From IMG/VR virus record IMGVR_UViG_3300045988_019467: a DNA stretch of 43,946 bases; one strand, written 5' to 3'. The notes below the pieces were generated by a model, which saw nothing but the letters and a program-made list of their open reading frames with translations, ran no database searches and was not told the origin of the DNA. Both the position numbers and the translations under genes were made by a program. Each line of letters starts with the position of its first letter. Within the stretch, counting starts at the first letter, position 1. Source of the DNA: a virus. Lineage: Duplodnaviria > Heunggongvirae > Uroviricota > Caudoviricetes. Positions 1 through 41,387 of this stretch are shown here, one piece after another.

Positions 1-1145
1 CCCGCGCGGCCACTATGCGTCTCCTGTATCTCATGTTGCGCGAGCGCGGGATAAACACCCTATACACCATGCCTACGTATGACCTGTTGAAGCTGCGCGC
101 CATCCCTGGTGTGGTTGATGACCTGAATATGATGGGGCTTAAGTATGACCTCAACAAATCGGAATACAGTATCCACGTTAAGGGGTACGGTACTATGTTT
201 TTCAGGTCCTATGACAACCCGAACCGTCTAATCGCTTTTGAAGTAGCCCATTCTGTCGCCGATGAACTTGACGTTCTTACTAAAGAACAGGCGTCTCTGG
301 TGTGGCGTAAAATTTCAGAGCGTACCCGACAGCCTTGCAGAGGGGGTAACAGTATTGCTGCTGTGACCACACCTGACCAGGGATTCTCTGGATTTGTGTA
401 TGACTATTGGGTTACTAACGCTGACAGTTCTACGGAACTGATTAAGGCGTCTACATTGTCGAACCCATATTTACCTGAAGGCTACGTCGAACAGATACGC
501 AGGAACTACGACGCGGCTTTGGCTGATATGTATATCAACGGTGAATTTGTCAGTTTGACGGCCAATAAGGTGTATCACTATTTCAAACGAAGCACACATG
601 ACTCCACTCGCACCCTGCAGAATGAAGACGCTCTGCACATAGGGCTGGACTTTAATATAGGCGGATGCTGCGCCACTGTGAGCATTATCGAAGACGGCAA
701 CCCGACGGTTGTTGATGAGTTTGTCAGCCATAATACCGACGACTTCGTCAATAATGTCAGGATACGGTATCCGGGCCATACGGTTACGGTTTACCCTGAC
801 GCCTCTGGTCGCTCAGGCCACACTAACGCATCATTATCCGACATAGGTATCATCGAAAAAGCCGGCTTGCGTGTTAACGCTCCAAGTAAGAACCCATTCG
901 TTAAAGACAGAATAAACGCGGTTAACGCTCTTTTGTCACATAGCCGTTTGAGGGTTAACACTTCAAAATGCCCTAAATTAACACAGTCACTGGAAACGCA
1001 GGGGTATAACGATAATGGTGAGCCGGAGAAGTTTAAAACTCACCCGGCTATTGACGACTGGAACGACAGTTTAGGTTATTGTATGCATAGGTTGTTCCCT
1101 GTCGTCCGCCCGGTTATCAGCACTCCTGTCAGATTCGCACTTTAA
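1..1145 (+). CDS. terL: terminase large subunit, C-terminal part (N-terminal part is 43757..43946 across the circular junction)
   Basis: Frame open from window start and in frame with the ATG at 43757, whose N-terminus has a Walker A P-loop (GLGAGKS); lies between the putative terS and a portal-sized ORF; bases 1..99 duplicate 43848..43946. Confidence 0.8.
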   Translation, partial: RAATMRLLYLMLRERGINTLYTMPTYDLLKLRAIPGVVDDLNMMGLKYDLNKSEYSIHVKGYGTMFFRSYDNPNRLIAFEVAHSVADELDVLTKEQASLVWRKISERTRQPCRGGNSIAAVTTPDQGFSGFVYDYWVTNADSSTELIKASTLSNPYLPEGYVEQIRRNYDAALADMYINGEFVSLTANKVYHYFKRSTHDSTRTLQNEDALHIGLDFNIGGCCATVSIIEDGNPTVVDEFVSHNTDDFVNNVRIRYPGHTVTVYPDASGRSGHTNASLSDIGIIEKAGLRVNAPSKNPFVKDRINAVNALLSHSRLRVNTSKCPKLTQSLETQGYNDNGEPEKFKTHPAIDDWNDSLGYCMHRLFPVVRPVISTPVRFAL

Positions 1146-3024: not shown

Positions 3025-3056
3025 TGAATAGTACCCTATTATATTGGTGTCTGCAA
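3025..3056 (-). promoter_or_regulatory. class-1 promoter-like element, copy 1 (on minus strand: TTGCAG-N7-TATAAT-AGGGTACTATTCA)
   Basis: Perfect TATAAT on the minus strand about 40 nt upstream of ATG 2999; conserved about 30-bp motif repeated at 5180, 15061, 37806 and 39002, each oriented toward the adjacent operon. Confidence 0.5.
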
Positions 3057-4605: not shown

Positions 4606-4608
4606 TAT

Positions 4609-4629
4609 AAGGCCCCTTAACGGGGCCTT
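4609..4629. terminator. bidirectional intrinsic terminator hairpin (AAGGCCCC-TTAAC-GGGGCCTT)
   Basis: GC stem followed by TTAGTTTTATTT; between convergent genes 4147..4605 (+) and 4634..5155 (-); same stem sequence as 2655, 12429 and 24233. Confidence 0.6.
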
Positions 4630-4633
4630 AGTT

Positions 4634-5155
4634 TTATTTAAATCGCGCAGGCATTAACACCATAAAGGCCGTGTTTGAAAATGATATTTTGCATCCTCTG
4701 GTTTGGTCCTGGAAATCGAAACGAGAAATTTCATTTTTGTACGCCTTAGAAATCTTGTACGCGTCTGCCAAATAACGCAGAGTGAACCCTATACTATCGA
4801 CAACACCCGGTGTGATGTGCGCCACGCGTTTCCAGTCAGGAAAGTTTCCTTCTACAACATCTACCGGAAGTGTACATATAAGCGCGCGACTATCGTCATA
4901 GAAAGAAACACTGCCGTTGTCGTGGTCTACCTCTGCGTAGTTAAATTTAGAAGGCTCTCTCCCTTTGATATCAATGAGAACCCCTTTCTCAACGTTTGTC
5001 TTCACATTGTCGCAGAACAATCTATGCCCATTCGTAGACACTATCAACCCCTCAGGTTCTATGTAAAAAGCGTTCAAATAGTAGCGCACATCGTTTTTAG
5101 CCCTGCAGATTTTCGCCCCTACATACGCAGGGAAAGTAATTACCGTAGTAACCAT
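4634..5155 (-). CDS. hypothetical protein (moron, unknown function)
   Basis: 173-aa minus-strand ORF with RBS AGGAGATG before ATG 5155; own promoter-like element and terminator; no motif recognised. Confidence 0.55.
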   Translation of the reverse strand: MVTTVITFPAYVGAKICRAKNDVRYYLNAFYIEPEGLIVSTNGHRLFCDNVKTNVEKGVLIDIKGREPSKFNYAEVDHDNGSVSFYDDSRALICTLPVDVVEGNFPDWKRVAHITPGVVDSIGFTLRYLADAYKISKAYKNEISRFDFQDQTRGCKISFSNTAFMVLMPARFK

Positions 5156-5179: not shown

Positions 5180-5211
5180 TGAATAGTACCCTATTATATT
5201 GGAGTATGCAA
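5180..5211 (-). promoter_or_regulatory. class-1 promoter-like element, copy 2 (on minus strand: TTGCAT-N7-TATAAT-AGGGTACTATTCA)
   Basis: Same motif as 3025..3056; TATAAT on the minus strand about 40 nt upstream of ATG 5155. Confidence 0.5.
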
Positions 5212-5263
5212 ACTATTTGTTTACGCATTCCAGTTATTACACTCAATTGTAAATGTTGGAATA

Positions 5264-5306
5264 AACTATTCGAATAGTTGACTTTTCACTAAAAATATGC
5301 TAAGCT
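5264..5306 (+). promoter_or_regulatory. 16-bp perfect palindrome AACTATTCGAATAGTT overlapping a sigma70-like promoter (TTGACT-17-TAAGCT)
   Basis: Perfect palindrome at 5264..5279 built from the same CTATTC/GAATAG half-sites as the repeated operator; TTGACT at 5278..5283 and TAAGCT at 5301..5306. Confidence 0.35.
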
Positions 5307-5487
5307 CCACCTGAGCTTGTGAAGTATGAACAAGCGACCGCGTCGCGGGCAGGTAACGGAGCTGGACGTAAGTCCTGAGTGTAGTTACGCTGACGCGTCC
5401 GGAAGGGCCATACTCTATTGCTTGTGTAAAAAAGTAACTGATTTACTGAGATTACGCCGTTTCTGTGTTTAAATGATAAGGACTAGC

Positions 5488-5512
5488 GCCCCGCTTTAAG
5501 GCGGGGCTTTAC
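5488..5512 (+). terminator. intrinsic terminator or attenuator hairpin just upstream of the spanin genes
   Basis: GCCCCGC-TTTAAG-GCGGGGC stem-loop followed by TTTACTT; lies 20 nt before the i-spanin RBS. Confidence 0.4.
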
Positions 5513-5531
5513 TTATCGAGAAAGGAGAAAC

Positions 5532-5918
5532 ATGAATCTTAAAGCAACTGTCGTAGCGGGAGCATGTTTCATCATCCTGGCTTACGCACACGGCATCTAC
5601 CAGTACCACAGCGGCTGGAACGAAGGCCGGGCGAATCTCGTTTCGCAGCAACAGCAGAAAGCACAGGCTGAGTTAGCGAAGAAAACACAACGGCAGCAGC
5701 AAGATGAATCGAAGGCCGCAGCCGCCGACAACGAAGGCAAGACGAAATCAGAGGTGATTACCCGTGAAGTCGTTAAGTACATTAAAACGCCTGGCCGCAG
5801 CGTGTGCACTTTCGACGATGCTCGCGTCCTGCTCAAGTCCCGCGCCGTCGCAAACGCCAATTCCATCCCCGGATACGACAATGATGCAGCCTCCGTGCAA
5901 ACTGGCGCCGCCAAGTAG
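5532..5918 (+). CDS. i-spanin (Rz-like inner-membrane spanin)
   Basis: N-terminal transmembrane helix (VVAGACFIILAYAHGIY) followed by a Q/A/K-rich coiled-coil-like region; an o-spanin-like lipoprotein ORF overlaps its 3' end in another frame; RBS AAAGGAGA. Confidence 0.65.
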   Translation: MNLKATVVAGACFIILAYAHGIYQYHSGWNEGRANLVSQQQQKAQAELAKKTQRQQQDESKAAAADNEGKTKSEVITREVVKYIKTPGRSVCTFDDARVLLKSRAVANANSIPGYDNDAASVQTGAAK

Positions 5919-6027
5919 CGACGCTGACGAGGATTTAGCTATCGACGTCCAGAACGCCGAATGCGTACGGCAGCTGAGGCTGAAAGTGTTCATGTTGCAG
6001 GATTACGTGAGGAATATTCTGGAATAG
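5764..6027 (+). CDS. o-spanin (Rz1-like outer-membrane lipoprotein), overlapping the i-spanin gene
   Basis: Signal peptide with lipobox L-A-S-C, proline-rich mature region; GTG start with RBS GAGGTGA; begins inside the i-spanin gene in a different frame and extends past it. Confidence 0.65.
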   Translation: MKSLSTLKRLAAACALSTMLASCSSPAPSQTPIPSPDTTMMQPPCKLAPPSSDADEDLAIDVQNAECVRQLRLKVFMLQDYVRNILE

Positions 6028-6109
6028 TTGCCTTGCATGTTGGAATAATTTATTCTTGACATGTAAATCCGGGTGGCCCGGGTTCCAACGTCCAGGGGAC
6101 ATACTGACT

Positions 6110-11255: not shown

Positions 11256-12424
11256 ATATGGCTACAACTCCTTTTAAGGGCGCGACTACCGCGCAATTCT
11301 ATGTGGCGGAAACTACCCCTGGCGTAACACCGACTAACCCGGTATGGTCGCCGTTGCGTAACACAGGTGGCGTTCCTGCTATTACCCGTGACACGCTGAC
11401 CTCCAACGAACTGGACGGCAGCCGTGAAACTACATCCATCCGAACCGGTAACAAACAGGTTAGCGGTGAATACGCGGTCGAGCTTAGCTCTAAAAGCCAG
11501 GACGACTGGCTGGCGGGTGCTTTAGGCTCTACGTGGCAATCCGGTGTTTCTCTGTCGGGGCTGTCGATTACCGTCGCACCGGTGGGCAAGACGTTCACCC
11601 GTGCCGAAGGTAGCTTTATTACTGACGGTGTGGAAGTAGGCGACCTGATTGCGTTTACTGACTTAACCGGCGATAACGCTAAACCGTTTATTGTTACTGC
11701 GGTAGAGGCACTGGTGGTAACTGGTGCGGGTATTCAACACACTCTGATCGCCGAGACTGCTACTACCGCGGCTAAGACCGGCGACAAACTGGAAACCGGC
11801 AGCCAGTGTAAGACGTTCTCTATTCTCACCTGGTACAAGGGCCAGTGCGGCGGGACAGACGCGTACACGCTTACCAAAGGCGTGGAAGTTTCTGGTTTCA
11901 CTGTTGAACAGGCCGTTAACGCGATGGTGACGGGCAGCTTCCCGTTCATCGGGCGCAGCCAGGAGATTCTTACCGCGGCGCCGTCTGGTTCCGACTTCTC
12001 CTCTGTTACGTTTGGTGACGAGCCGTTCTCCTCGGTTGACGTTTCCGTGTTCGATGGTTCTACGCCGTTGCGTTGCGACAGCCTGACCATCACCAACGAC
12101 AACAGCGCGTCCGCACAGTTCGAACTCGGCAACACTAACGTTGCATTTGTTGAGCGTAGCCGCGCGGCTAACACCTTCTCTATCTCTGGCAAGCTGTACG
12201 ACATGGCGATGATTCAGAAGTTTATCAACGAACAGCAGGTAGAGATTAACTCTATTCTGGCTGGGGTAAACGGGGCTATGTCTTTCAGTTTGAAACGTGC
12301 AGAACTCACGGCGGTCACACCGGAGATTGGCGGACCTGAGTCAATCACTCAGTCTATTGAAGGCCAGGCTACTGGCAACCAGTACCAGTCGTCTATTGTT
12401 ATCCAGCGTATCACCTACGCATAA
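11252..12424 (+). CDS. major tail (tube) protein (putative)
   Basis: 390-aa Thr/Ser/Gly-rich ORF between neck genes and the tail chaperone/tape measure genes; followed by a strong terminator. Confidence 0.5.
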   Translation: MNMATTPFKGATTAQFYVAETTPGVTPTNPVWSPLRNTGGVPAITRDTLTSNELDGSRETTSIRTGNKQVSGEYAVELSSKSQDDWLAGALGSTWQSGVSLSGLSITVAPVGKTFTRAEGSFITDGVEVGDLIAFTDLTGDNAKPFIVTAVEALVVTGAGIQHTLIAETATTAAKTGDKLETGSQCKTFSILTWYKGQCGGTDAYTLTKGVEVSGFTVEQAVNAMVTGSFPFIGRSQEILTAAPSGSDFSSVTFGDEPFSSVDVSVFDGSTPLRCDSLTITNDNSASAQFELGNTNVAFVERSRAANTFSISGKLYDMAMIQKFINEQQVEINSILAGVNGAMSFSLKRAELTAVTPEIGGPESITQSIEGQATGNQYQSSIVIQRITYA

Positions 12425-12428
12425 AACT

Positions 12429-12454
12429 AAGGCCCCGAAAGGGGCCTTTTTCTT
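12429..12454. terminator. bidirectional intrinsic terminator (AAGGCCCC-GAAA-GGGGCCTT + TTTTTCTT)
   Basis: 20-mer identical to 2655..2674 followed by a T-run; separates the tail tube gene from the convergent moron operon. Confidence 0.65.
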
Positions 12455-15060: not shown

Positions 15061-15092
15061 TGAATAGTACCCTATTATATTGGGGTGTGCAA
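15061..15092 (-). promoter_or_regulatory. class-1 promoter-like element, copy 3 (on minus strand: TTGCAC-N7-TATAAT-AGGGTACTATTCA)
   Basis: Same conserved motif; TATAAT on the minus strand about 40 nt upstream of ATG 15033. Confidence 0.5.
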
Positions 15093-15199
15093 GTAATATG
15101 GTAGAATAATTTTGCGCCTAGTGTCGCACACGAAAAGCGGGTGGTTCCCGTCTGGCGCATTTCCTTTAACCAGTAACCTCTTAACCAAAGGATTAAAGA

Positions 15200-19325: not shown

Positions 19326-19687
19326 ACATTAACGACTACACGGGAATACCTTACGACTTTCGCAAACGCAATTGCTGGCATCATGTGCGTATTGTCCGTG
19401 CGGATGCCGGGTTAGCAACCCCGGCGTTCGACGCTACAAGCCCAACGGCAATTAACGAAGCGTTTGATGAAGGTCATCGTGACACGAAGGGGCTTACGAA
19501 AATTGATAAGCCTGAAAACTTGTGCGCGGTTCTTATGGGTAGGCGCCGCGGCGGCAGAATCGTGTGGCACGCCGGGGTCTACTTTGACGGAATGGTGAGT
19601 CATTGCGAAATGGCCTCCCGTCAGGTACGGCTTGACAGGCTTGTTGACCTAAGAGACTTGTACACGGAGATTGAATTTTGGCGATAA
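19322..19687 (+). CDS. tail assembly protein K-like (NlpC/P60-type fold)
   Basis: Cys/His pattern (NCWHHV ... VWHAGVYFDGMVSHCE) resembling NlpC/P60 catalytic residues found in gpK; position before the I/J-like gene. Confidence 0.5.
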   Translation: MNINDYTGIPYDFRKRNCWHHVRIVRADAGLATPAFDATSPTAINEAFDEGHRDTKGLTKIDKPENLCAVLMGRRRGGRIVWHAGVYFDGMVSHCEMASRQVRLDRLVDLRDLYTEIEFWR

Positions 19688-22224
19688 TCCTGCACTACAC
19701 GCGAAATGCTAACGGTGTTTTCGACCGTACAAAACACGTCGGGATGCCAATGGAGTTTGTTGTTAACCATATCCCTGACGGCGTTCCTGTGCGCGTATAT
19801 CTCGGTGAGATTGGTGACGACACCGATATCACTGACGACTTCGACGCGCTTAAAGACGAAGACGCGGTGTATCACATAGTAGAAGGAGCTGGTGGAGGTG
19901 CGCTTGTAGTAGGTGCGCTTGTTGCTTTGGTCGTCGTTGCGGCTACGGTTTTACTAACTAAGAAACCGAGTCTGGCGGTAACAGCGACAAATAACCAAGC
20001 AAAATCCGCTAATAACAGCCTAACAGACCGCTCCAACAAGCCGCGTCCTTACGAGCGCTCTTATGACATATGCGGGACTGTGCAGACAATCCCTAACGAC
20101 CTTATGCAGACGTACAAGGCGTTCAACTCCACTGGTGCTTTGCTGGAGTATTCGTACTATGACGCTGGTCGCGGGCATCTGCATATTGAGGCTGATGGCG
20201 TCACGGAAGGCGACACCCTGATAAGCGACATCACAGGTTCTTCTGTTGCCGTGTACGCCCCCTATACATCACCAAACAATACAACTACCCCGCAACTACA
20301 AATCGGCGACGTCATTGACCAGAAACTCTATGTGACGTACTCCAACGACGACGTTGACGGTATTGTACTGAAAGCACCGAACGATATCGGGGCCAACCCA
20401 AGCGCCGACGGCACCGCTAAACGTATTTCAAACACCGGCTACATCTATGACCCGTCAGGAGACTCTGCTTTTTCTGAGTTTCTTAGCGTCGGTGATGTGG
20501 CGGTGCTGAGCAACTTTGACGTTGCGGATGTCACTAACCTGAACGGCTCGTTTGAGGTTTTATACGTTGACGACTTCGAAGTAAGATTAGCCGTAAACGG
20601 TGCGTCTAACTGGGCCGCGTTGACCAGCGGACAGACGTACACGCTAACAGAGCGTTCAGATACGTTTATCGGCCCGAGCAACACATATGACGTATCTCTT
20701 ACGGACTGGTATTACATGGTACGCGGAGAAGTTGACCGGGTACTTGCTAACGTTGCCGGGCAGAACGGCCTCTACAAATACGACGGCGGCTATAACCGTA
20801 CCAGCGTAACCGTAGAACTCCAGTATCAGATGATTGACTCTCAGCGTAACCCGTTGGGCGATATTTACACGGTACAGGCTACAATTACAGGCAACAATAC
20901 GGATTACGTCGGTACGTCTATCTATGGCCAATTGCCGACAGCGTCTCGTTTCCGTGCCCGCATGCGCCGCGTAACGAATTTCGACAAGGACTACGACGGG
21001 ACGGTAAGTGACGAGATAACCTTCATCAACCTGTACGGGCAGTCACTGGACACAACCCCACACTACGGCAACCGAACTACCGTACATTGTGCCCGTAAAC
21101 AGACGCCGCGCGCTGCCAGTATTGATAACCCTGAACTGCGCATGATCGCGACCGAGATGTGCTACAAATACTTAGGCAATGGGGTATTCGATACGGTAAT
21201 GACACCAAACACTCAGGCCGTGCAGTCGCTAATCAGGCTGGCGCGCGACCCGGCGGTGGGTAATCTGGAACTGACAACGGCAAACATGGATAAGTTACTA
21301 TCCGTGCAGGAAGAAATAGAGTCCTATTTCGGAAGTGAATTAGCGGGGCAGTTCTGCTACACGTTCGACGACTACGACACCACGATGCAGGACATCGTTC
21401 AGACCATAGCGGAAGCCGTGTTCTGTACTGCGTACCGTAAAGGCGCGGATATTATGCTGCGATTCGACCGTCCTGTCGCGGGGCCTGAAATGGTATTCAC
21501 ACACCGCAGTAAGACAACTGGTACGGAGAAATGGACCCGCACGTTCAACGATTCGACAACCTACGATAGCCTGTCGTTCTCGTACATTGACCCTGATACT
21601 AACGTACAGGAAACGATTTATATCCCGGAAGAACTCGGCGCAAACACCGAGGAGTACGAATCGAAGGGGGTGCGCAACTACCAGCAGGCGTACTGGCTGG
21701 CGTGGCGCCGCTACCAGCGCAACACGTTAAGTAAAGTTGTCGTAGAGTTTGAAGCTACGGAAGAAGGTGCGCTCGCCACCCCCGGCGGGGTAATCAGCGT
21801 TGTTAAAGGCTCTCGCATTGCGCCGCAAGATGGTTATGTTGTTGCCGTTAATGGGCTTACACTGACATTGTCCCAGCCTGTTACGTTTACCCCCGGAGAC
21901 GACCACTCCATCATTCTTAAGAAGCGCGACGGCTCCGTACAGAGTATCTCCGTTATCAAAGGAAGTCATGACCGCGAAGTGGTTATGCTCTCCGCGCCGG
22001 AGGAGGCAATCTACACGGGGAATAGCGCGCTAAAAACTGAGTTTTCATTCGGCAACGAAGCAAGGCATAATGCTCAGAAGATAGTTGTTTCTTCAATAGA
22101 CCCGGGCGATGACCGCACGGTCAAGATTACTGGCTACAACTATGACGACGGATTCTATAAATACGACGGCGTCGCACCTTTAGGCCGCGGTTTCTCCGAC
22201 GGATTCAGCAATGGTTTTAATTAA
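19678..22224 (+). CDS. tail tip protein: gpI-like N-terminal segment fused to a host-specificity gpJ-like region
   Basis: N-terminal region ends in a Gly-rich hydrophobic stretch (GAGGGALVVGALVALVVVAATVLL); downstream RARMRRVT resembles the lambda J IRMRRMT motif; start uncertain (TTG 19678 or ATG 19744). Confidence 0.55.
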   Translation: MAIILHYTRNANGVFDRTKHVGMPMEFVVNHIPDGVPVRVYLGEIGDDTDITDDFDALKDEDAVYHIVEGAGGGALVVGALVALVVVAATVLLTKKPSLAVTATNNQAKSANNSLTDRSNKPRPYERSYDICGTVQTIPNDLMQTYKAFNSTGALLEYSYYDAGRGHLHIEADGVTEGDTLISDITGSSVAVYAPYTSPNNTTTPQLQIGDVIDQKLYVTYSNDDVDGIVLKAPNDIGANPSADGTAKRISNTGYIYDPSGDSAFSEFLSVGDVAVLSNFDVADVTNLNGSFEVLYVDDFEVRLAVNGASNWAALTSGQTYTLTERSDTFIGPSNTYDVSLTDWYYMVRGEVDRVLANVAGQNGLYKYDGGYNRTSVTVELQYQMIDSQRNPLGDIYTVQATITGNNTDYVGTSIYGQLPTASRFRARMRRVTNFDKDYDGTVSDEITFINLYGQSLDTTPHYGNRTTVHCARKQTPRAASIDNPELRMIATEMCYKYLGNGVFDTVMTPNTQAVQSLIRLARDPAVGNLELTTANMDKLLSVQEEIESYFGSELAGQFCYTFDDYDTTMQDIVQTIAEAVFCTAYRKGADIMLRFDRPVAGPEMVFTHRSKTTGTEKWTRTFNDSTTYDSLSFSYIDPDTNVQETIYIPEELGANTEEYESKGVRNYQQAYWLAWRRYQRNTLSKVVVEFEATEEGALATPGGVISVVKGSRIAPQDGYVVAVNGLTLTLSQPVTFTPGDDHSIILKKRDGSVQSISVIKGSHDREVVMLSAPEEAIYTGNSALKTEFSFGNEARHNAQKIVVSSIDPGDDRTVKITGYNYDDGFYKYDGVAPLGRGFSDGFSNGFN

Positions 22225-24228: not shown

Positions 24229-24232
24229 AACT

Positions 24233-24258
24233 AAGGCCCCAAACGGGGCCTTTTCTCT
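24233..24258. terminator. bidirectional intrinsic terminator (AAGGCCCC-AAAC-GGGGCCTT + TTCTCT)
   Basis: Same stem as 2655, 4609 and 12429; between the tail fibre gene and the convergent minus-strand replication module. Confidence 0.6.
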
Positions 24259-26327: not shown

Positions 26328-27117
26328 TTACGGCCCCCATGAACGCCTTTATAAATTCAGCGGCTACTTGCGGGACGATAGCATTGCCGTAACCGCGCAG
26401 GCGCCCCACTCTGGCGGGAACCCCATTATCTGACGAGCCATAATCGGGTGGAATGATTCGAGTTTTACCATCTGCTCCTTTGTCGGTTTTCCATTCGGAC
26501 CAAAAGTGTGTAGCCACATCTGGCGATATAGCGTGTCGTTTCTCATCCTCCCATCGTTTCTCATGAATGACCGACTTAAATCCCCTGAATCCCTGTGTGA
26601 CCGTGTTGTAGCGGTAGCCCAGGGTTGCCCCAAAGAAGAGTCTTTCTCTTTTGTGCGGTGCGCCGACGCTACAAGCTGGGAGTACGGCAAACCCGACGGC
26701 GTAGTCTTCTCCTTCCAGGTGAGTTTGTAAATCGCACATCCACGATTTTGCAATTGCTGGCGCAACCTGCTCCCCAAAGAGGACTGGAGGGTGGCACTCG
26801 CTGATGAGGTCGAGGAAGACTGGCGCGAGGTGTCTCGGGTCGAACTGTCCGAGTTGTTTTCCTGCCGCGCTAAACGGTTGGCAAGGCGGGCTTCCCGTCC
26901 AGAGAGGCGTATCTTCCGAAACTCCCGCAAGTCTGAGCGCGAGAGGCCAGCCGCCGATACCAGCGAAAAAATGACACTGGGTGAATCCGTCAAGGTCTTC
27001 TGGTCTAATTTCGGTAATGCTTCTTTCATCTACAACTCCAAAGGGTATTTGACCCTGTTTTATTAATTCACGCAGCCACGCGGCGGCGCCTTTATCCCAT
27101 TCATTGTAATAGTTCAT
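26320..27117 (-). CDS. DNA (cytosine-5) methyltransferase, orphan
   Basis: C5-MTase motif I FFAGIGG, motif IV GSPPCQPFSAAGK (catalytic PCQ), ENV-like GEQV, C-terminal GYGNAIVPQV; no adjacent restriction endonuclease. Confidence 0.7.
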   Translation of the reverse strand: MNYYNEWDKGAAAWLRELIKQGQIPFGVVDERSITEIRPEDLDGFTQCHFFAGIGGWPLALRLAGVSEDTPLWTGSPPCQPFSAAGKQLGQFDPRHLAPVFLDLISECHPPVLFGEQVAPAIAKSWMCDLQTHLEGEDYAVGFAVLPACSVGAPHKRERLFFGATLGYRYNTVTQGFRGFKSVIHEKRWEDEKRHAISPDVATHFWSEWKTDKGADGKTRIIPPDYGSSDNGVPARVGRLRGYGNAIVPQVAAEFIKAFMGAVNE

Positions 27118-27305
27118 TTCGCCACCAGAACTAACTCTTTACGCCCGAACGCCGTAACGTTACCCGTTACATCTTCGATAACCAGTTTCCCGTTCGACTC
27201 GACGAACACCGTATCAACGGCAACAGGACGACGTGTCTTAACGTTGAAAATCATGTCACCCGGTACGATGTCACGTGCTGGTTTGCGGTCATATTCGTGT
27301 TTCAT
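27114..27305 (-). CDS. hypothetical protein
   Basis: 63-aa ORF with start overlapping the downstream MTase gene. Confidence 0.4.
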   Translation of the reverse strand: MKHEYDRKPARDIVPGDMIFNVKTRRPVAVDTVFVESNGKLVIEDVTGNVTAFGRKELVLVAK

Positions 27306-27600: not shown

Positions 27601-27918
27601 TTATAATTCCTTATATTGTTGGGGTATGTGCTTACTATAATAGTTCGCTATTAGGGTGTCAACCTGTTTTATCGAACCAACGACAAAAACATTTGCACCG
27701 CGTTTACGCATACGCTCATGCTCTCGTAACTGGTGGGGGTCTGGCTTCGTGTTTTCGTCTTTCTTAACCTCGACGAACCAGACGATGCTGTAGGGGAGAA
27801 TTACCAGCAGGTCAGGAGCGCCCACTCTATTTTCGTAGGAAAGTTTACGAACGAGGCCCCCCAGGGCCTCGAATCGCTCTTTTGCGTATTTCTGCACGCG
27901 CCCCTCAGGCGTACTCAT
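27601..27918 (-). CDS. VRR-NUC domain nuclease (PD-(D/E)xK fold)
   Basis: PD...(D/E)xK-like signature (GAPDLLVIL ... VEVKK) in an approximately 105-aa protein; start taken at ATG 27918. Confidence 0.55.
   Translation of the reverse strand: MSTPEGRVQKYAKERFEALGGLVRKLSYENRVGAPDLLVILPYSIVWFVEVKKDENTKPDPHQLREHERMRKRGANVFVVGSIKQVDTLIANYYSKHIPQQYKEL
27623..27662 (-). promoter_or_regulatory. class-2 promoter, copy 7 (minus strand: TTGACACC-N12-TATTATAGT), inside the 3' end of the VRR-NUC CDS
   Basis: Minus-strand TTGACA (plus 27657..27662) and TATAGT (plus 27634..27639) with about 18-bp spacer; near-identical elements at 31214..31242 and 34199..34228. Confidence 0.5.
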
Positions 27919-30534: not shown

Positions 30535-31161
30535 TTAACGGCGACGACGTTCACGGCGTGGTGCTCCATCTTCTTCGTCGTCTTCCAGGTCGTCGACACT
30601 TGCGGCGACTTTAGAGCCGCCGAACGCTTTACCTTCGCCGACGTATTTAATGGCCAGCAGGTTAACGCCGAGAACTTTGTATTTCTGGCTAAACCAGATT
30701 TCAACGCTTACGTTGGCAACACAGCCACTGTAAACCTGTTCGCCTTCAATCTGTTCTCCGTCTACATTAAAGTCCTGCTCTACCTGAGTCTCACCTTTTT
30801 TAGAGGTTACAATCAGTGGCTGTTTCTGTGCCTTCGCTTTGAAGTAGAATCCTTCCGGGAAATCTTCAAACGGATTGTCGCGCTCAGCAATATCTTTAAT
30901 CGCACATTTATCCATGTGCTTACCCTCGCCGTAGTTGGATTTCATCCATTTCTCGGCAGCGGCTGCGCCTAACGCTTCTTCAACTACGGCGTAAACAGTG
31001 TCGTAGAGCGCATCGATTTGAGCATGGTCAGACGGCAGGATAATAGTCGCGCTGTACTGGCCTTTAGTGATTGAGCCATCATCGTTTTCACGGTCTTTTT
31101 CGCGTTCGAATACGTTAACCCATGCAGTGTTTACTTTACGCAGATTCAGTTTCAGTCCCAT
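30535..31161 (-). CDS. single-stranded DNA-binding protein, T7 gp2.5-like (putative)
   Basis: Size, position upstream of the DNA polymerase, and an FGG-plus-acidic stretch (AFGGSKVAASVDDLEDDEEDG) recalled as similar to the gp2.5 C-terminal region; basic extreme C-terminus is atypical. Confidence 0.4.
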   Translation of the reverse strand: MGLKLNLRKVNTAWVNVFEREKDRENDDGSITKGQYSATIILPSDHAQIDALYDTVYAVVEEALGAAAAEKWMKSNYGEGKHMDKCAIKDIAERDNPFEDFPEGFYFKAKAQKQPLIVTSKKGETQVEQDFNVDGEQIEGEQVYSGCVANVSVEIWFSQKYKVLGVNLLAIKYVGEGKAFGGSKVAASVDDLEDDEEDGAPRRERRRR

Positions 31162-31213: not shown

Positions 31214-31242
31214 ACTATAATAGCTAACTATTCAGGTGTCAA
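31214..31242 (-). promoter_or_regulatory. class-2 promoter, copy 8 (minus strand: TTGACACC-N12-TATTATAGT)
   Basis: Minus-strand TTGACA (plus 31237..31242) and TATAGT (plus 31214..31219); about 50 nt upstream of the SSB-like ATG at 31161. Confidence 0.5.
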
Positions 31243-34187: not shown

Positions 34188-34228
34188 GGTATGTGCTAAC
34201 TATAATAGCGAACTATTCATGGTGTCAA
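34188..34228 (-). promoter_or_regulatory. class-2 promoter, copy 6 (minus strand: TTGACACC-N13-TATTATAGT)
   Basis: Minus-strand TTGACA (plus 34223..34228) and TATAGT (plus 34199..34204); divergent from the Cro-like gene. Confidence 0.5.
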
Positions 34229-34292
34229 TGGGCTTTTCTAAAATAATTAATATGGTACTATTCACATATCAACTGACTAAGGAGTAATTGAC

Positions 34293-34508
34293 ATGCAACC
34301 ATCTGAACTAGGCATCCGTGTAGAACAACGCCGTAAAGAACTCGGTATCTCCCAGCGCCGTCTGGCTGTCCTGACCGGCGTTTCTCAGGGCGCGATTAAC
34401 CAACTGGCACTTGGGGTAACTCAGGACGTCCGCCCGGCGACGCTGTTTAAACTGGCGGAAGTGCTGGAAGTAGACGCTAAGTGGCTGGCGTTCGGTGAAG
34501 GGGCTTAA
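34293..34508 (+). CDS. XRE-family HTH transcriptional regulator (Cro/CI-like)
   Basis: Classic HTH_XRE pattern (ELGISQRRLAVLTGVSQGAINQLALG); RBS AAGGAG; transcribed opposite to the surrounding replication operon. Confidence 0.7.
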   Translation: MQPSELGIRVEQRRKELGISQRRLAVLTGVSQGAINQLALGVTQDVRPATLFKLAEVLEVDAKWLAFGEGA

Positions 34509-34525: not shown

Positions 34526-36808
34526 CTACTCCAAATCTTCCTCTGTCACCACCAGCATTTCATTCGGTTCGTATATTGTCTTCGGCCTTAATCTATCCCC
34601 TATTCTTTCAGGTATACGATATGTTCTCGGTACTACTTCGCCGTTTGCATCGCAGCCAAGCATTAGTTCACCATCTTTCAACATTTTATCAAGATGGGTG
34701 TTAGTCACAGAGAAGTCACCAGAACGGGCCACTATCTGCTGCTGAGTAAAACCGCGTCCGGTGTCATCAGACTGTTGCAGGTCTTCCAGCGCCGAAAGTA
34801 TTGACTCCTTCCTTCCTTCATCCCTGCCGCGTTTAACCTCTTCCTTTACTTTTTCTTTACCTTTATCAGATAGCCCTTCTTCCCGCTCTTTCTCCTCGTC
34901 AGTTTTGAACGGCTCGAAGCCCCACGGCATCAACACAAGCGCCTTGTGTGGCTCTGGCAGGTCGAGGTTAACGATTGTGCCGTATTCCTCGGTGCTACCC
35001 AGGAACTCAACTGCGCGGTATTCTTTCGGCGGTGGCGCTTCACGGAACTGTACCGACTCCAGAACCATGCCAACCGTCTTCTGTTGAGGCCCGTGCTTAA
35101 ATTTAGAGTGGTATACGTTTATCTGACGGTCTGTAGCGCGTTCGATTGTCAGTTCCACGTCGACACCGGCATACAATGCCCCACTGCCACGGGCTTTCTT
35201 TCCGCCCTTCGGTGTATGGTGGACGACGCCCACCGCGGCTTTAGTTGCGTCACGTACTTCTTTCAGGATGGCGATAACTTTACCCATGCCGATTGCCGTT
35301 GATGAACTGTTCTCGTCGAACTTATCAATCGTCAGTGCCAGCGTCTGGTTGAGGGTGTCGAACGCCACCATGCCGATTGGCTCGCCCTCCGCAGTTTCGC
35401 GCATTAACTTAATCAGGTTTTTCAGTTTTCCGACTTCACCCATGTCGATGACATGTACATAATCTTTACCTTCCTCGCCATATTTAGCCGCGAGTGCGTC
35501 GATACGTGTGCGCGTAGCTGCGCCACCCTCACCGTCGATATAGAAATGGTGGCAACGCTGGGTGTCTGCCCCTGCAAACCGATATCCGGCGGCGCTGAGG
35601 TACATCATCCCCAGCGTATAGAACGACTTGTACGTACCAGACTCACCGACAATATCCCATATGCAATCTGACGGCATATACCCTTCGACGACGAAATCAG
35701 CCTTTACCGGTGCCGGTAACTCATCCTCCTCTGAGTCCTCATCGTCTTCCAGGTCGTCGAGGCTGCATGAAACAGATTCACGCGCACCCCAGCCGATAGC
35801 CTCTGCGACTTCACTGAACGGCAGGCCAGTCGCATCGCACGCATATTTCCACACCTCTTTCGGCGACATGCCTTCGGTTGCCGTAATGTCGGTGTTGTGA
35901 ATCATGGTTACGTTCGGCGCTTCATATCCTTCACGCGGGAAACACAGCAGGAAGTCGTCAGGACGCGGCGTCGGGTCGCTGTAGTTTTCTGCATGCTCTG
36001 GTGTGGCTGGCATCTTAAGGCCGCGCGGCGTCATGATGCCGCCGTACTCGAACGCCAGTGCCTCGAACGCATCAGTAAACGCGGTGCGCAGTTCTTCCGG
36101 TATCTGGTAATCCGATGCGCCGCTAACGTCAACGGCGGGGATGCCTTCCAGCAACTCGTCCGGGTCAATCAGGTCGTTGCGGCGCGACCAGATAACCTGC
36201 GAGCCGACCGGCGGCAGGTACATAGGCTGGGACAGAGTGAACCCGCTGCGGTCAGCACCCATGCCCTTAAAGAAATGCTCCAGCAACCCGTGGCGAACAC
36301 GGATGACGTCACCACCCTCAACCGGGCGGGCCAGTGGCATGACGACGCGAAAGCGCGGTGATTCATCGGTATGGGATGCCGTGGTGTAAATGCACATCGC
36401 CAGGCGGCTGCGCTTAACCAGGCGCACAGCTTCCTGGTACTCTTCCGGTGTTGCACTGTCGAAGTCCAGATACGCCAGCGACGATTTGCTTACAGACGCG
36501 TCACAGCGGTAAAAGAAGCCTTTACGCGCTTGCTTAAAGTCGCCTGTTTCCGGGTCTTTTACGGTGCTGCGTGTCGAGTCGCACGCGGCTGTGATATAGC
36601 CGGGCGCTGTCTTCGGGTTAATTCCATCACGAACAGCATCGAGCGGCTGGATTAACTCTTTCAGGTCGTCCAGTGTTGCCGTGTGTGTGGTTCTGACGTT
36701 TATATCCTTTTTCTCTGCCCGCGCGTTGCGACGGGACCAAGAGTAGGATAAAATTACATCGGACATGTTGTATATTCCTTCAGCAAGTAATTTGGCCTCG
36801 GCGTTCAC
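34526..36808 (-). CDS. DNA primase/helicase (RecA-like ATPase domain)
   Basis: 760-aa protein with Walker A-like GESGTYKS in the C-terminal half; calling the N-terminal half a primase domain is by analogy with P4-type replicases, not a recognised motif. Confidence 0.55.
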   Translation of the reverse strand: MNAEAKLLAEGIYNMSDVILSYSWSRRNARAEKKDINVRTTHTATLDDLKELIQPLDAVRDGINPKTAPGYITAACDSTRSTVKDPETGDFKQARKGFFYRCDASVSKSSLAYLDFDSATPEEYQEAVRLVKRSRLAMCIYTTASHTDESPRFRVVMPLARPVEGGDVIRVRHGLLEHFFKGMGADRSGFTLSQPMYLPPVGSQVIWSRRNDLIDPDELLEGIPAVDVSGASDYQIPEELRTAFTDAFEALAFEYGGIMTPRGLKMPATPEHAENYSDPTPRPDDFLLCFPREGYEAPNVTMIHNTDITATEGMSPKEVWKYACDATGLPFSEVAEAIGWGARESVSCSLDDLEDDEDSEEDELPAPVKADFVVEGYMPSDCIWDIVGESGTYKSFYTLGMMYLSAAGYRFAGADTQRCHHFYIDGEGGAATRTRIDALAAKYGEEGKDYVHVIDMGEVGKLKNLIKLMRETAEGEPIGMVAFDTLNQTLALTIDKFDENSSSTAIGMGKVIAILKEVRDATKAAVGVVHHTPKGGKKARGSGALYAGVDVELTIERATDRQINVYHSKFKHGPQQKTVGMVLESVQFREAPPPKEYRAVEFLGSTEEYGTIVNLDLPEPHKALVLMPWGFEPFKTDEEKEREEGLSDKGKEKVKEEVKRGRDEGRKESILSALEDLQQSDDTGRGFTQQQIVARSGDFSVTNTHLDKMLKDGELMLGCDANGEVVPRTYRIPERIGDRLRPKTIYEPNEMLVVTEEDLE

Positions 36809-36825: not shown

Positions 36826-37059
36826 TTATTCCAGGTCTTCTAAAGTAGCGGTCATTCCGCGAACTTCGGCAACGGCACTATATTTCCCGCCAACATTTTT
36901 CACGACACCGGATTTAACCAGTACACGTAACGACCCTTCAATAATGGCTGAACTATAGTACTTAAAATAACTACGGCGCAAGTCCATAACGCTGCACGAC
37001 CTTTTTTTACGGGTTAATGAAACGACCGCCGTAAATACGCGTGACTGGAACTCTGTCAT
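36826..37059 (-). CDS. hypothetical protein (C-terminal ...TLEDLE)
   Basis: 77-aa ORF; ATG overlaps the stop of the upstream gene (ATGA). Confidence 0.4.
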   Translation of the reverse strand: MTEFQSRVFTAVVSLTRKKRSCSVMDLRRSYFKYYSSAIIEGSLRVLVKSGVVKNVGGKYSAVAEVRGMTATLEDLE

Positions 37060-37226
37060 TTCACATTCTCCTTAATCCAGGCTTCCACTTTCTCCGGGTC
37101 AAACGTACCGGGCTGACGACGACCCATAATACGGATACAGCAATCAGGGAACTTCCCACTCTTTAACCAGTTATTCAGCGTGCGACGAGTAACCCCGATA
37201 CGCTCAGCTACTTCATTCTGCGTCAT
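37056..37226 (-). CDS. small HTH DNA-binding protein (AlpA/excisionase-like fold, putative regulator)
   Basis: 56-aa ORF with HTH-like segment (QNEVAERIGVTRRTLNNWLKSGKFP). Confidence 0.4.
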   Translation of the reverse strand: MTQNEVAERIGVTRRTLNNWLKSGKFPDCCIRIMGRRQPGTFDPEKVEAWIKENVK

Positions 37227-37805: not shown

Positions 37806-37838
37806 CTTGCGCACCCCAACATAATAGGATACTATTCA
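37806..37838 (+). promoter_or_regulatory. class-1 promoter-like element, copy 4 (TTGCGC-N7-CATAAT-AGGATACTATTCA)
   Basis: Same motif as the minus-strand copies, here on the + strand about 45 nt upstream of ATG 37870. Confidence 0.5.
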
Positions 37839-37869: not shown

Positions 37870-38061
37870 ATGTTTAAGAAGGGTCAGTTGGTTAAATACT
37901 CCGACGATAAACACGGCATAATTGAATTAAAATCTGCTTTATTTCCAGGAAAGTACGTAGTTACCGTGCAAAATGTGAGAGGAGTAAATTCACAAATATA
38001 CGTAGCGGAGGAGAACTTAAAACTAATCGGCAACAATTTTAAATTCAAAGAGGCGAAGTGA
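37870..38061 (+). CDS. hypothetical small protein
   Basis: RBS GAGGAG 9 nt upstream of ATG 37870; first gene of the rightward block. Confidence 0.45.
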   Translation: MFKKGQLVKYSDDKHGIIELKSALFPGKYVVTVQNVRGVNSQIYVAEENLKLIGNNFKFKEAK

Positions 38062-38267
38062 TGGAAGAATTATTTGAAGAACTGAAACACCATAAACTGG
38101 AAGAAGTGCATTCCATAATTACCCAGTACAGGGTTACTTTATTAGACGGTCCAACTATTTCTTCCGGGTCATGCGAGGATTCGCGGAAATTTTTACGTTT
38201 ACTACGAACGGCATCGAATCATGGTGCCAGTGCCGACGACTCTGAGGGAGGTTGCCGTGTTAAGTAA
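38058..38267 (+). CDS. hypothetical small protein
   Basis: ATGA start/stop overlap with the preceding gene. Confidence 0.4.
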   Translation: MMEELFEELKHHKLEEVHSIITQYRVTLLDGPTISSGSCEDSRKFLRLLRTASNHGASADDSEGGCRVK

Positions 38268-38466
38268 ATACCGCATAGTTAGTGTAGAGTGGGTTACCGC
38301 CTTCGGTGAGAAACGAATTACACCCGCCGTGCAGGTGCGGGTTGGCTTTTTCTGGTGGGTTACTCTGACCCATTGCGAAAGCGTCAAGCAGGCGCGTTAC
38401 TACATCGAACACGGTTGCACCCGGCGCGAGAAATCTAAAGTTATCGGAGTTATTAGTTATGAATAG
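38221..38466 (+). CDS. hypothetical small protein (start uncertain)
   Basis: ORF overlaps the previous gene by 47 nt; the true start may be downstream. Confidence 0.3.
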   Translation: MVPVPTTLREVAVLSKYRIVSVEWVTAFGEKRITPAVQVRVGFFWWVTLTHCESVKQARYYIEHGCTRREKSKVIGVISYE

Positions 38467-38635
38467 CCGCACCTTTATTTTGAGAGAAGCGTTCGAACGG
38501 TGGGCCGTCGTTGAGGGTCTGCCGGTTAACAAGGGTTCAAAGAAAGAGTACCTGAACGTTAAGACGCGTCTCGCGTGGCGGGCGTGGAAAGCTGGTGTGC
38601 AATCCTTGATTGAAAGAGGTGTGAGATATGGGTAA
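38459..38635 (+). CDS. hypothetical small protein
   Basis: 58-aa ORF overlapping both neighbours at start and stop. Confidence 0.3.
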   Translation: MNSRTFILREAFERWAVVEGLPVNKGSKKEYLNVKTRLAWRAWKAGVQSLIERGVRYG

Positions 38636-38840
38636 GTGGATTAAGTGTAGTGAGCGGATGCCGCCGAAAATGACAGGCGTTCTTGTAGCTACAGAGTTTG
38701 GACATAAAGGCGATTGGCGGATGAAGTGGGCTACTTATATCCCCGGTCATCCTGACGCTGATGATGGGTGGCTAATTCCTGGGGCTTCCTGGAAACCGTC
38801 ACACTGGATGCCGCTACCTGAGCCACCTTCGCTGGTATAA
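38628..38840 (+). CDS. DUF551-like small protein
   Basis: Pattern W-x-C-SERMP...GVLVAT...W...P...WMPLPEPP, recalled as typical of the phage DUF551 family. Confidence 0.45.
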   Translation: MGKWIKCSERMPPKMTGVLVATEFGHKGDWRMKWATYIPGHPDADDGWLIPGASWKPSHWMPLPEPPSLV

Positions 38841-38885
38841 CAGGTGGTGTAACAGGTCAATAGCTTACTATTTTACTGAGTGACT

Positions 38886-38925
38886 TACGCTGCTACACAG
38901 CAGCGTATCATTTTTCTCATTTTTG
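38886..38925 (+). terminator. intrinsic terminator (TACGCTGCT-ACAC-AGCAGCGTA + T-rich tail)
   Basis: 9-bp perfect stem followed by TCATTTTTCTCATTTTTG. Confidence 0.6.
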
Positions 38926-39001: not shown

Positions 39002-39033
39002 TTGCACACTGGGATAGAATAGGCTACTATTCA
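39002..39033 (+). promoter_or_regulatory. class-1 promoter-like element, copy 5 (TTGCAC-N7-TAGAAT-AGGCTACTATTCA)
   Basis: Same motif; + strand, about 45 nt upstream of ATG 39062 and just after the terminator. Confidence 0.5.
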
Positions 39034-39061: not shown

Positions 39062-39181
39062 ATGTATAAGTATCTGACGGTTGAGAAACTGGAACAGCTT
39101 TATGCTGAGTTGCGAGTTTGCAGTGTATGCAGCGGCGACAACGAGCATGTTTACGGCGAACTGGAGGTAGCTGATGAGTAA
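39062..39181 (+). CDS. very small hypothetical protein (CxxC-containing)
   Basis: 39-aa ORF with RBS GAGAGGAGAG; overlaps the next gene start. Confidence 0.25.
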   Translation: MYKYLTVEKLEQLYAELRVCSVCSGDNEHVYGELEVADE

Positions 39182-41324: not shown

Positions 41325-41353
41325 GTTGACTAATACCATCGACCCTATTATAT
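41325..41353 (+). promoter_or_regulatory. sigma70-like promoter (TTGACT-17-TATATT) containing the CCCTATTATATT half-motif
   Basis: TTGACT at 41325..41330 and TATATT at 41348..41353; shares CCCTATTATATT with the class-1 elements. Confidence 0.4.
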
Positions 41354-41387
41354 TTACTCCATCGACAACGAGAACGGAGTAGAGAAG

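Follow-up and report, generated by a model that had tools for sequence, protein, structure and literature searches.

This report concerns a 32-nt repeat, here called the class-1 element, in the IMG/VR virus record IMGVR_UViG_3300045988_019467, a 43,946-nt stretch of DNA (the window) that makes up the whole genome of a Kagunavirus-type siphophage (subfamily Guernseyvirinae). The element has already been listed descriptively and belongs to a known kind of system. The genome paper on phage fBC-Eco01, which used PHIRE, gives seven 'phage RNAP promoters' (RNAP, RNA polymerase) at homologous positions with the consensus tgAATAGTa-ccTATTat-T, which is the reverse complement of the class-1 element, and the paper on SGP-C (a Jerseyvirus) gives TAATAGTACCCTATTATGTT as a conserved regulatory element. 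Both PHIRE papers thus report the same sequence as a 20-nt repeat, the former as a promoter of a phage RNA polymerase, and the Golestan paper gives seven PHIRE promoters, unspecified. In the literature on Guernseyvirinae we found no functional study of a repressor, a promoter or a transcriptome. New here relative to the PHIRE papers are the -35/-10 pair, the dyad, a second class of sites (class 2) and a candidate regulator. By the sequence evidence, the repeat is real, non-random and a set of promoters. The reading that we prefer, with a probability of roughly 0.55, is that the copies are sigma-70 promoters, that a Cro-like protein binds an operator within them as a repressor, and that the element serves as the 5' edge of gene cassettes.

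Operators of phage 434 are 14 bp long with conserved outer bases. The predicted operator here is likewise a dyad of 14 bp; its outer bases are conserved, its centre is free and it overlaps the core promoter. The gene of the candidate regulator stands at a divergent promoter pair, and the candidate regulator has the same size as 434 Cro (71 amino acids, aa), which is its best solved relative. The differences are that the window phage is virulent, that its sites are single and dispersed over about ten promoters rather than forming three adjacent cooperative operators, and that its half-site is AATAG, not ACAA. In phage P1, with its C1 operators, and in mycobacteriophage L5, with its gp71 'stoperators', one repressor acts at dispersed sites at or near promoters; these sites are asymmetric and maintain lysogeny. 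The window genome resembles both in having many sites spread through it, one of which (38859) lies at the end of an operon like a stoperator, but its sites are symmetric and it has no lysogeny module. The promoter-early stem-loop (PeSL) cassettes of T4-type phages are reportedly small gene cassettes of varying cargo that are bounded by a repeated early promoter with a stem-loop. A conserved promoter boundary with swapped cargo is also found here, in five slots with no fewer than 40 different first genes; however, the 3' boundary is an ordinary intrinsic terminator and not a promoter-attached stem-loop, and recombination at the element is our supposition.

We searched the window with the pattern TTGC-N13-ATAGGNTACTATTCA, tolerating up to three mismatches. 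Exactly five sites were found, each with zero mismatches, where 0.04 would be expected from dinucleotide shuffles (Table 1). Under a weight matrix built on 100 unique instances from related contigs in IMG/VR, the five sites score 44-59 bits and the rest of the window at most 5 bits. The five oriented copies of the original prediction are thus borne out, except that copy 4 begins at 37807 and not at 37806. All five copies face a gene with a Shine-Dalgarno sequence, as had been claimed of operons, although the claimed distance of 35-45 nt is rough (from the 3' end of the element to the ATG there are 24-31 nt). Each of 114 instances in kagunavirus-like IMG/VR contigs likewise lies just 5' of a Shine-Dalgarno sequence and an ATG. 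Occurrence of the motif in non-promoter contexts in relatives had been named as grounds for giving up the promoter interpretation; related phages carry the element only at promoters. No class-1-like 30-nt repeat was found by a repeat search of Cornellvirus TS6. Two supposed degenerate copies in the window, at 5247-5270 and 6033-6051, did not hold up. They score -23 and -25 bits under the weight matrix and share only the half-site GAATAG/GGAATA with the element, and this hexamer, seen 21 times against 18.6 expected, shows no enrichment across the genome.

Table 1. Class-1 copies, class-2 promoters, further palindrome sites and genes of candidate regulators in the window. Promoter boxes and start sites are predicted from sequence; aa, amino acids.
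Feature	Position	Strand	Sequence elements	Downstream gene or context
Class-1 copy 1	3025..3056	-	-35 TTGCAG 3056-3051; -10 TACTAT 3033-3028; palindrome 3027-3040; predicted start ~3021	106-aa gene 2679-2999; cassette ends at terminator 2674-2655
Class-1 copy 2	5180..5211	-	-35 TTGCAT 5211-5206; -10 TACTAT 5188-5183; palindrome 5182-5195	Clamp-like gene 4634-5155, 173 aa
Class-1 copy 3	15061..15092	-	-35 TTGCAC 15092-15087; -10 TACTAT 15069-15064; palindrome 15063-15076	Superinfection immunity, DNA repair exonuclease, polynucleotide kinase, dNMP kinase; ends at terminator 12448-12429
Class-1 copy 4	37807..37838	+	-35 TTGCGC; -10 TACTAT 37830-37835; palindrome 37823-37836	Small-gene operon 37870 to 38840
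Class-1 copy 5	39002..39033	+	-35 TTGCAC; -10 TACTAT 39025-39030; palindrome 39018-39031	Small-gene operon beginning at 39062
Class-2 promoter	34199..34228	-	TTGACA-18-TATAGT; palindrome AATAGTTCGCTATT (34204-34217) in spacer	Heads leftward replication operon
Class-2 promoter	31214..31242	-	TTGACA-17-TATAGT; palindrome 31219-31232 in spacer	Heads DUF2815/DNA polymerase operon
Class-2 promoter	27634..27662	-	TTGACA-17-TATAGT; palindrome 27639-27652 in spacer	Heads resolvase/methylase/helicase operon
Class-1-like element, no -35	34245..34264	+	AATTAATATGGTACTATTCA; palindrome 34249-34262, one mismatch	Just upstream of Cro-like gene
Orphan exact palindrome	38859..38872		AATAGCTTACTATT	Between gene end 38840 (copy-4 operon) and terminator 38886-38907; no promoter around
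Exact palindrome in tail gene 19678-22224	21315..21328			Missing from closest relative; probably incidental
Cro-like gene	34293..34508	+		71-aa XRE/HTH_3 protein; favoured operator-binding candidate
HTH_17 gene	37056..37226	-		56-aa Xis/MerR-like protein; second candidate; in first leftward operon

The five repeats are best read as host-type sigma-70 promoters with a moderate, not a strong, match. In all five copies a TTGCAN stands exactly 17 nt upstream of a TACTAT that is invariant, with A at position 2 and T at position 6. This is the standard sigma-70 spacing, so the original prediction, which took TATAAT as the -10 box with a TTGCA 7 bp upstream, probably assigned the wrong boxes. That TATAAT falls inside the 17-nt spacer and is not constant: copy 4 has CATAAT and copy 5 has TAGAAT, which leaves three copies with the box as stated. 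Scored with approximate sigma-70 hexamer weights, TTGCAN-17-TACTAT ranks first among the forward pairs of every copy with 9.4 bits, at roughly the 95th percentile of genome windows, compared with 5.4-7.7 bits for the TATAAT box paired with any -35. The earlier statement that the element is not a standard sigma-70 promoter is therefore not supported by its best-scoring arrangement. The elements match the sigma-70 consensus at 7 of 12 positions, which is why a consensus scan had missed them.

Conservation among the 100 unique instances follows the same architecture. The T, T, G and C of the -35, at positions left free by the search pattern, are conserved at 100, 100, 98 and 99%, and the eight positions directly upstream of the -35 (-11 to -4) are A/T-rich. 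An A located 7 nt after TACTAT is conserved at 86% and is the likely start site. Homologous promoters in Salmonella phage SE2, a Jerseyvirus, read TTGACG-18-TACTAT and TTGCAT-17-TATTAT, and a cassette promoter of Cornellvirus TS6 that shares the leader of window copy 2 (AACTTAAACAGGAG) has TTGACA-17-TAATAT. The distance from the end of the -10 to the leader block is 7 nt in TS6 and 6 nt for the window TACTAT; these positions were read directly from the sequences, since a MAFFT alignment of the cassette promoters left the -35 elements unaligned. In the Jersey- and Cornellvirus homologues the -10 shifts along with the -35, independently of the palindrome described below.

The feature common to the sites is a 14-bp palindrome, AATAG-N4-CTATT, which lies across the spacer and the -10. 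Ten exact copies occur in the window (0.04 expected), and 13 sites are found when one mismatch is allowed (1.2 expected), making this the commonest 5-N-5 palindrome in the genome by far. Three other kagunaviruses have 7-8 exact copies each, SE2 has three exact copies and four with one mismatch, and a lambdoid control genome has no exact copy. Besides the class-1 elements, the exact palindrome occurs in the spacers of three near-consensus sigma-70 promoters of the replication module (class 2), and in all it covers the spacer and the -10 at 8 of the 10 exact sites. The sites are single. The nearest pair (34204 and 34249) is 45 bp apart from centre to centre, and tandem adjacent cooperative operators of the OR1-3 type are not present in the window. 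The orphan palindrome at 38859-38872 is also kept in phage EC3-1 and recalls a roadblock or 'stoperator' site. A class-1-like promoter in SE2 (12336-12349) carries the dyad AGTAG-N4-CTACT, a symmetric change in both arms.

To avoid selecting for the palindrome, class-2 loci in relatives were identified from nothing but their downstream sequence. This gave 79 unique variants; AATAG-N4-CTATT is exact in 73 of them, while the centre takes 17 forms and the linker of 4-5 nt to the -35 takes 22. The position of the palindrome is fixed relative to the -10 in class 2. From the -35 it is separated by 4-5 nt in that class, by 10 nt in class 1 and by 7 nt at SE2 site 33752. The palindrome slides relative to the -35, but a TAnnnT hexamer keeps its 17-18 nt from TTGnnn in every case. 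Invariant arms, a free centre and a sliding position suggest the footprint of a dimeric DNA-binding protein and not a rigid recognition sequence of a polymerase, and the palindrome looks like the operator of such a protein encoded by the phage. As in operators of the Cro/CI type, the dyad has conserved outer half-sites and a variable centre and overlaps the core promoter. The earlier view that the repeats are promoter elements dependent on a further factor is therefore retained for the promoters and, given the operator-like palindrome, for the factor, but not for a signal other than sigma-70. A DNA or RNA hairpin was also considered for the palindrome and rejected (-1.9 kcal/mol, z -0.6).

The palindrome has a counterpart in a third lineage. 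Cornellviruses TS6 and SP-031 carry, at corresponding positions of promoters, the variant ATTAG-N4-GTAWT in five and four copies, compared with about 0.15 expected, and TS6 has no exact AATAG-N4-CTATT. Of the five TS6 sites, four fall within spacers of sigma-70 promoters, with both orientations represented; at the one at 30990 no promoter is evident. The binder is unlikely to be a host factor because jerseyviruses and cornellviruses share the host Salmonella but differ in operator.

The Cro-like protein is on balance the probable binder of the palindrome. It matches HTH_3 (E 2e-12) and a PHROG annotated as 'transcriptional repressor', phage 434 Cro is its best solved relative with an E value of 2e-6, and its nearest homologues outside the phage group include the Cro-position protein of a lambdoid phage. 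Its gene is the sole rightward gene within the leftward replication module, adjoins the palindromes at 34204 and 34249, and is syntenic in Kaguna- and Jerseyvirus. Cornellviruses retain the gene at 41-43% identity; they are the one lineage with a changed operator, and in them the protein is most divergent and the HTH_17 gene is absent. It is the only recognised DNA-binding gene common to the cornellviruses and the window phage, and its product is the only one with a helix-turn-helix (HTH) domain among ten small TS6 proteins tested. Two further open reading frames (ORFs) were tried as binders and rejected. The 77-aa ORF at 36826-37059 is not conserved among kagunaviruses. The 63-aa ORF at 27114-27305 (minus strand) shows 95-98% identity between Kaguna- and Jerseyvirus, far higher than the genome average, and is missing from Cornellvirus; its model (predicted local distance difference test, pLDDT, 76) is an SH3/Tudor-like barrel, for which the PDB gave no match at E <= 0.001, and no DNA-binding family was recognised in it.

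The layout of the genome was taken from the annotation of three relatives, EcoPhCCP1, fPoEco01 and EC3-1, one of which was annotated with structure-based searches. Late structural genes run rightward, the replication module leftward and small early genes rightward, and several short cassettes sit backwards among the late genes. Many terminators are spread across the genome. The window sequence matches several hundred Escherichia and Salmonella phages and has 95% identity to Escherichia phage EcoPhCCP1 across 89% of its first 25 kb. Neither an integrase nor a CI is annotated and a lysogeny module is absent; the window phage reads as a virulent phage of Escherichia coli.

The 114 instances of the element in kagunavirus-like contigs occupy the same five genomic slots as the window copies. 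The first gene after the element differs among them: slots 1 to 5 have at least 6, 11, 4, 3 and 14 kinds, in that order, and slots 1 and 2 have part of their cargo in common. The cargo in the window includes a clamp-like protein, a superinfection-immunity protein, a DNA repair exonuclease, a polynucleotide kinase and a dNMP kinase. These are early-type functions that lie backwards among late genes and are ended by terminators. Judged from these gene contexts, the class-1 element is the constant 5' edge of exchangeable cassettes, a role that may account for the conservation of all 32 nt.

Start sites, the identity of the binder and repression are what we infer from the architecture, statistics, conservation footprint and gene contexts set out above. 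Host polymerase with sigma-70 would read each copy by means of the A/T-rich upstream tract, the -35 TTGCAN, the 17-nt spacer and the -10 TACTAT. Transcription would start at the conserved A 7 nt past the -10, leaving a leader of 20-27 nt with the ribosome-binding site. A dimer of the Cro-like protein on the palindrome would block access of the polymerase to the -10 and so repress the promoter. Because the same operator is found in the class-2 spacers and beside the regulator's own gene, a single regulator could control about ten transcription units, including the three leftward replication promoters. Its build-up would then shut down early and middle genes, among them the backward cassettes for DNA metabolism and superinfection immunity that lie among the late genes. 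Repression is the default reading because the palindrome covers the spacer and the -10, the usual position of a repressor. Activation of the MerR type requires a spacer of 19-20 nt. The spacers here are 17-18 nt.

Several observations weigh against the combination of sigma-70 promoters and a Cro-like repressor. Kagunavirus and Jerseyvirus both use AATAG, yet the recognition helix of the Cro-like protein is SQGAINQ in the former and SQSLITH in the latter, and the Cornellvirus helix (TQSAISH) resembles that of Jerseyvirus although the operator differs. The two cornellviruses are close relatives and their pattern was derived from one of them, so the contrast in operator counts as one lineage. The sigma-70 match is only moderate, yet all 32 nt are conserved, which exceeds the needs of sigma-70 and a 14-bp operator. 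The position of the site is the single argument for repression over activation. The only RNA-seq of a kagunavirus (K1B4) is coarse and comes from an asynchronous infection in which starts are unmapped.

The alternatives differ in which protein reads the element and in what binding would do. The HTH_17 protein, made from the palindrome-free promoter (37426-37398) of the first leftward operon, could instead bind the palindrome and repress or activate all promoters that bear it. It was once favoured because it is conserved where the palindrome occurs and missing from Cornellvirus TS6. Its identity is 80-88% across most of the compared kaguna- and jerseyviruses, which share the palindrome; cornellviruses, without the exact palindrome, have no such gene. 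More distant HTH_17 relatives were sought in IMG/VR for signs of covariation, but 41 of 42 matches are 79-100% identical (the exception is a partial match of 54%). The presumed homologue in K1B4, identified by gene order, is one of only four 'early' genes in the RNA-seq of that phage. This argument from presence and absence is weakened by the cornellviruses, which have a homologous operator family without the HTH_17 gene, and by EC3-1, whose HTH_17 protein is 71% identical and has the helix VSTMTLNRW instead of VTRRTLNNW, yet which carries the same palindrome eight times. Small Xis-type proteins also usually bind direct repeats rather than dyads, and we regard this protein as an unlikely binder. 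About as doubtful is a two-way switch or activator site, in which the bound protein would close the leftward promoter at three divergent junctions and activate a rightward late promoter that overlaps it. On their reverse strands, which face late genes, copies 1-3 contain promoter-like pairs of 9.7-11.2 bits with TATTAT or TGnTAGAAT, against 8.9 bits for copy 4 and 5.4 for copy 5, and the late genes beyond each backward cassette require a promoter of their own. At copy 3, a rightward TTGGGG (15080-85)-16-TGgTAGAAT (15099-15107) would start at about 15114, close to where a match to int-alpA RNA begins, with the centre of the palindrome about 44 bp upstream of that start; this suggests divergent promoters that overlap and share one operator. 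However, the -35 elements on the reverse strands are of poor quality and show no clear conservation, copies 4 and 5 and class 2 have no such rightward pair, and the class-2 promoters are near-consensus and need no activator. In the same spirit, it is possible, if unlikely, that copies 1-3 act as an early-to-late switch through the Cro-like protein in a virulent phage with no other recognisable late regulator; the 32-nt element could additionally be a homology patch by which kagunaviruses exchange early-gene cassettes from slot to slot and from genome to genome. As separate observations at this junction, the -35 of the rightward extended -10 promoter at 15080-15107 overlaps the spacer of copy 3 on the opposite strand, and the Rfam int-alpA RNA (RF02996) matches 15111-15175 (plus strand) with 36.6 bits (gathering threshold 35.8) in the leader of the tail-gene block.

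The remaining alternatives concern the signal itself. The original prediction proposed an activator-dependent or non-sigma-70 signal, with TATAAT as the -10 and the TTGCA found 7 bp upstream of it as a special recognition element. An A at position 2 and the final AAT of this box are conserved, and conservation of all 32 nt goes beyond the needs of a plain promoter. Against this, the box reads yAkAAT across the 100 instances in relatives (T 70% and C 30% at position 1, T 75% and G 25% at position 3), and at SE2 site 33752 it would read GTTAAT whereas TATTAT lies 17 nt from TTGCAT. TATAAT was rejected as a -10 on its lower score, on its variation at positions 1 and 3, and on two missing partners: there is no -35 at 15-19 nt, and no TG of an extended -10 precedes it in any copy (the preceding bases are CCAA in four copies and GGGA in one). 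TTGCA as the -12 element of a sigma-54 promoter was rejected as well, since no copy has a GG at -24, 10 nt upstream of the GC of TTGCA, where the sequence is A/T-rich. The three annotated relatives also have no annotated phage sigma factor or polymerase, and we consider such a signal improbable. Much less credible still is a promoter for a phage-encoded RNA polymerase, as stated in PHIRE-based genome papers, of which the one on fBC-Eco01 lists the element at homologous places. Such a promoter, or one for a phage sigma factor, is contradicted by gene content: no RNA polymerase or sigma factor gene is annotated in EcoPhCCP1, fPoEco01 or EC3-1, and every window ORF longer than 650 aa is assigned to a tail, tape-measure, helicase-primase, DNA polymerase or tailspike protein. 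The copies also lie on both strands and each contains a dyad. Lambda Q binds between the -35 and the -10 and needs a downstream -10-like pause sequence. A loading site for an antiterminator of the Q/AlpA type, with TACTAT as a sigma-dependent pause signal, would place the element in the same way, and AlpA too binds an element between the -35 and the -10 and needs a -10-like pause sequence downstream (PMC9371919). The genome is also rich in terminators. AlpA, however, is much larger, with residues past 140 and an eight-helix Q-like structure, and one molecule engages a 6-bp asymmetric element (PMC9371919), whereas the site here is a dyad and nothing Q-like was recognised among the window proteins scanned. 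Read-through of the cassette terminators would moreover give RNA antisense to the late genes, and we consider this explanation very improbable.

Should sigma-70 promoters under a Cro-like repressor be correct, the result would be a testable map of the lytic programme, in which about ten units are controlled, the first operon is free of the operator and a candidate regulator is named. It would also provide five natural insertion slots, each with a promoter, a leader and a terminator. Among phages proposed for therapy or biocontrol of E. coli and Salmonella, kaguna- and jerseyviruses belong to those isolated most often, and their small genomes have been described in one paper as attractive models for synthetic biology. 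The repeat is named in at least one genome paper as the promoter of a phage RNA polymerase, an enzyme that is unannotated in three relatives. A Cro-like repressor acting over a promoter is a textbook mechanism, and the value here lies in the corrected annotation and in usable parts.

Other features of the genome were observed alongside. The promoter at 41326-41354 (plus strand; TTGACT-17-TATATT) precedes a block of small genes and the terminase, shares CCCTATTATATT with the reverse strand of class 1 and has a single arm of the palindrome; the same arrangement is found in Jerseyvirus SE2. At the supposed degenerate copies, the plus-strand regions 5247-5290 and 6011-6055 carry a different motif upstream of the spanin and scaffold genes, with a perfect 16-bp palindrome AACTATTCGAATAGTT (5264-5279) and clustered GGAATA repeats at 5258, 6011, 6021 and 6042 (plus strand), and may be a control region of late genes. 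Between them, 5290-5530 (plus strand) has about 200 nt without a convincing ORF and a strong terminator (5488-5507) just ahead of the spanin gene at 5532; this segment could be a small RNA or a leader. The large terminase ORF (15-1145, plus strand) is only about 39% identical to its counterpart in all six relatives compared, and the helicase-primase (34526-36808, minus strand) is 32% identical to that of the closest genome relative and 85% to that of another kagunavirus; both look like module replacements. Finally, a family of terminators of the form AAGGCCCC-N4-GGGGCCTT is repeated at 2655-2674, 12429-12448, about 24232-24251 and 4608-4630, where its members end backward cassettes and late blocks, and those at 2655-2674 and 12429-12448 score on both strands.

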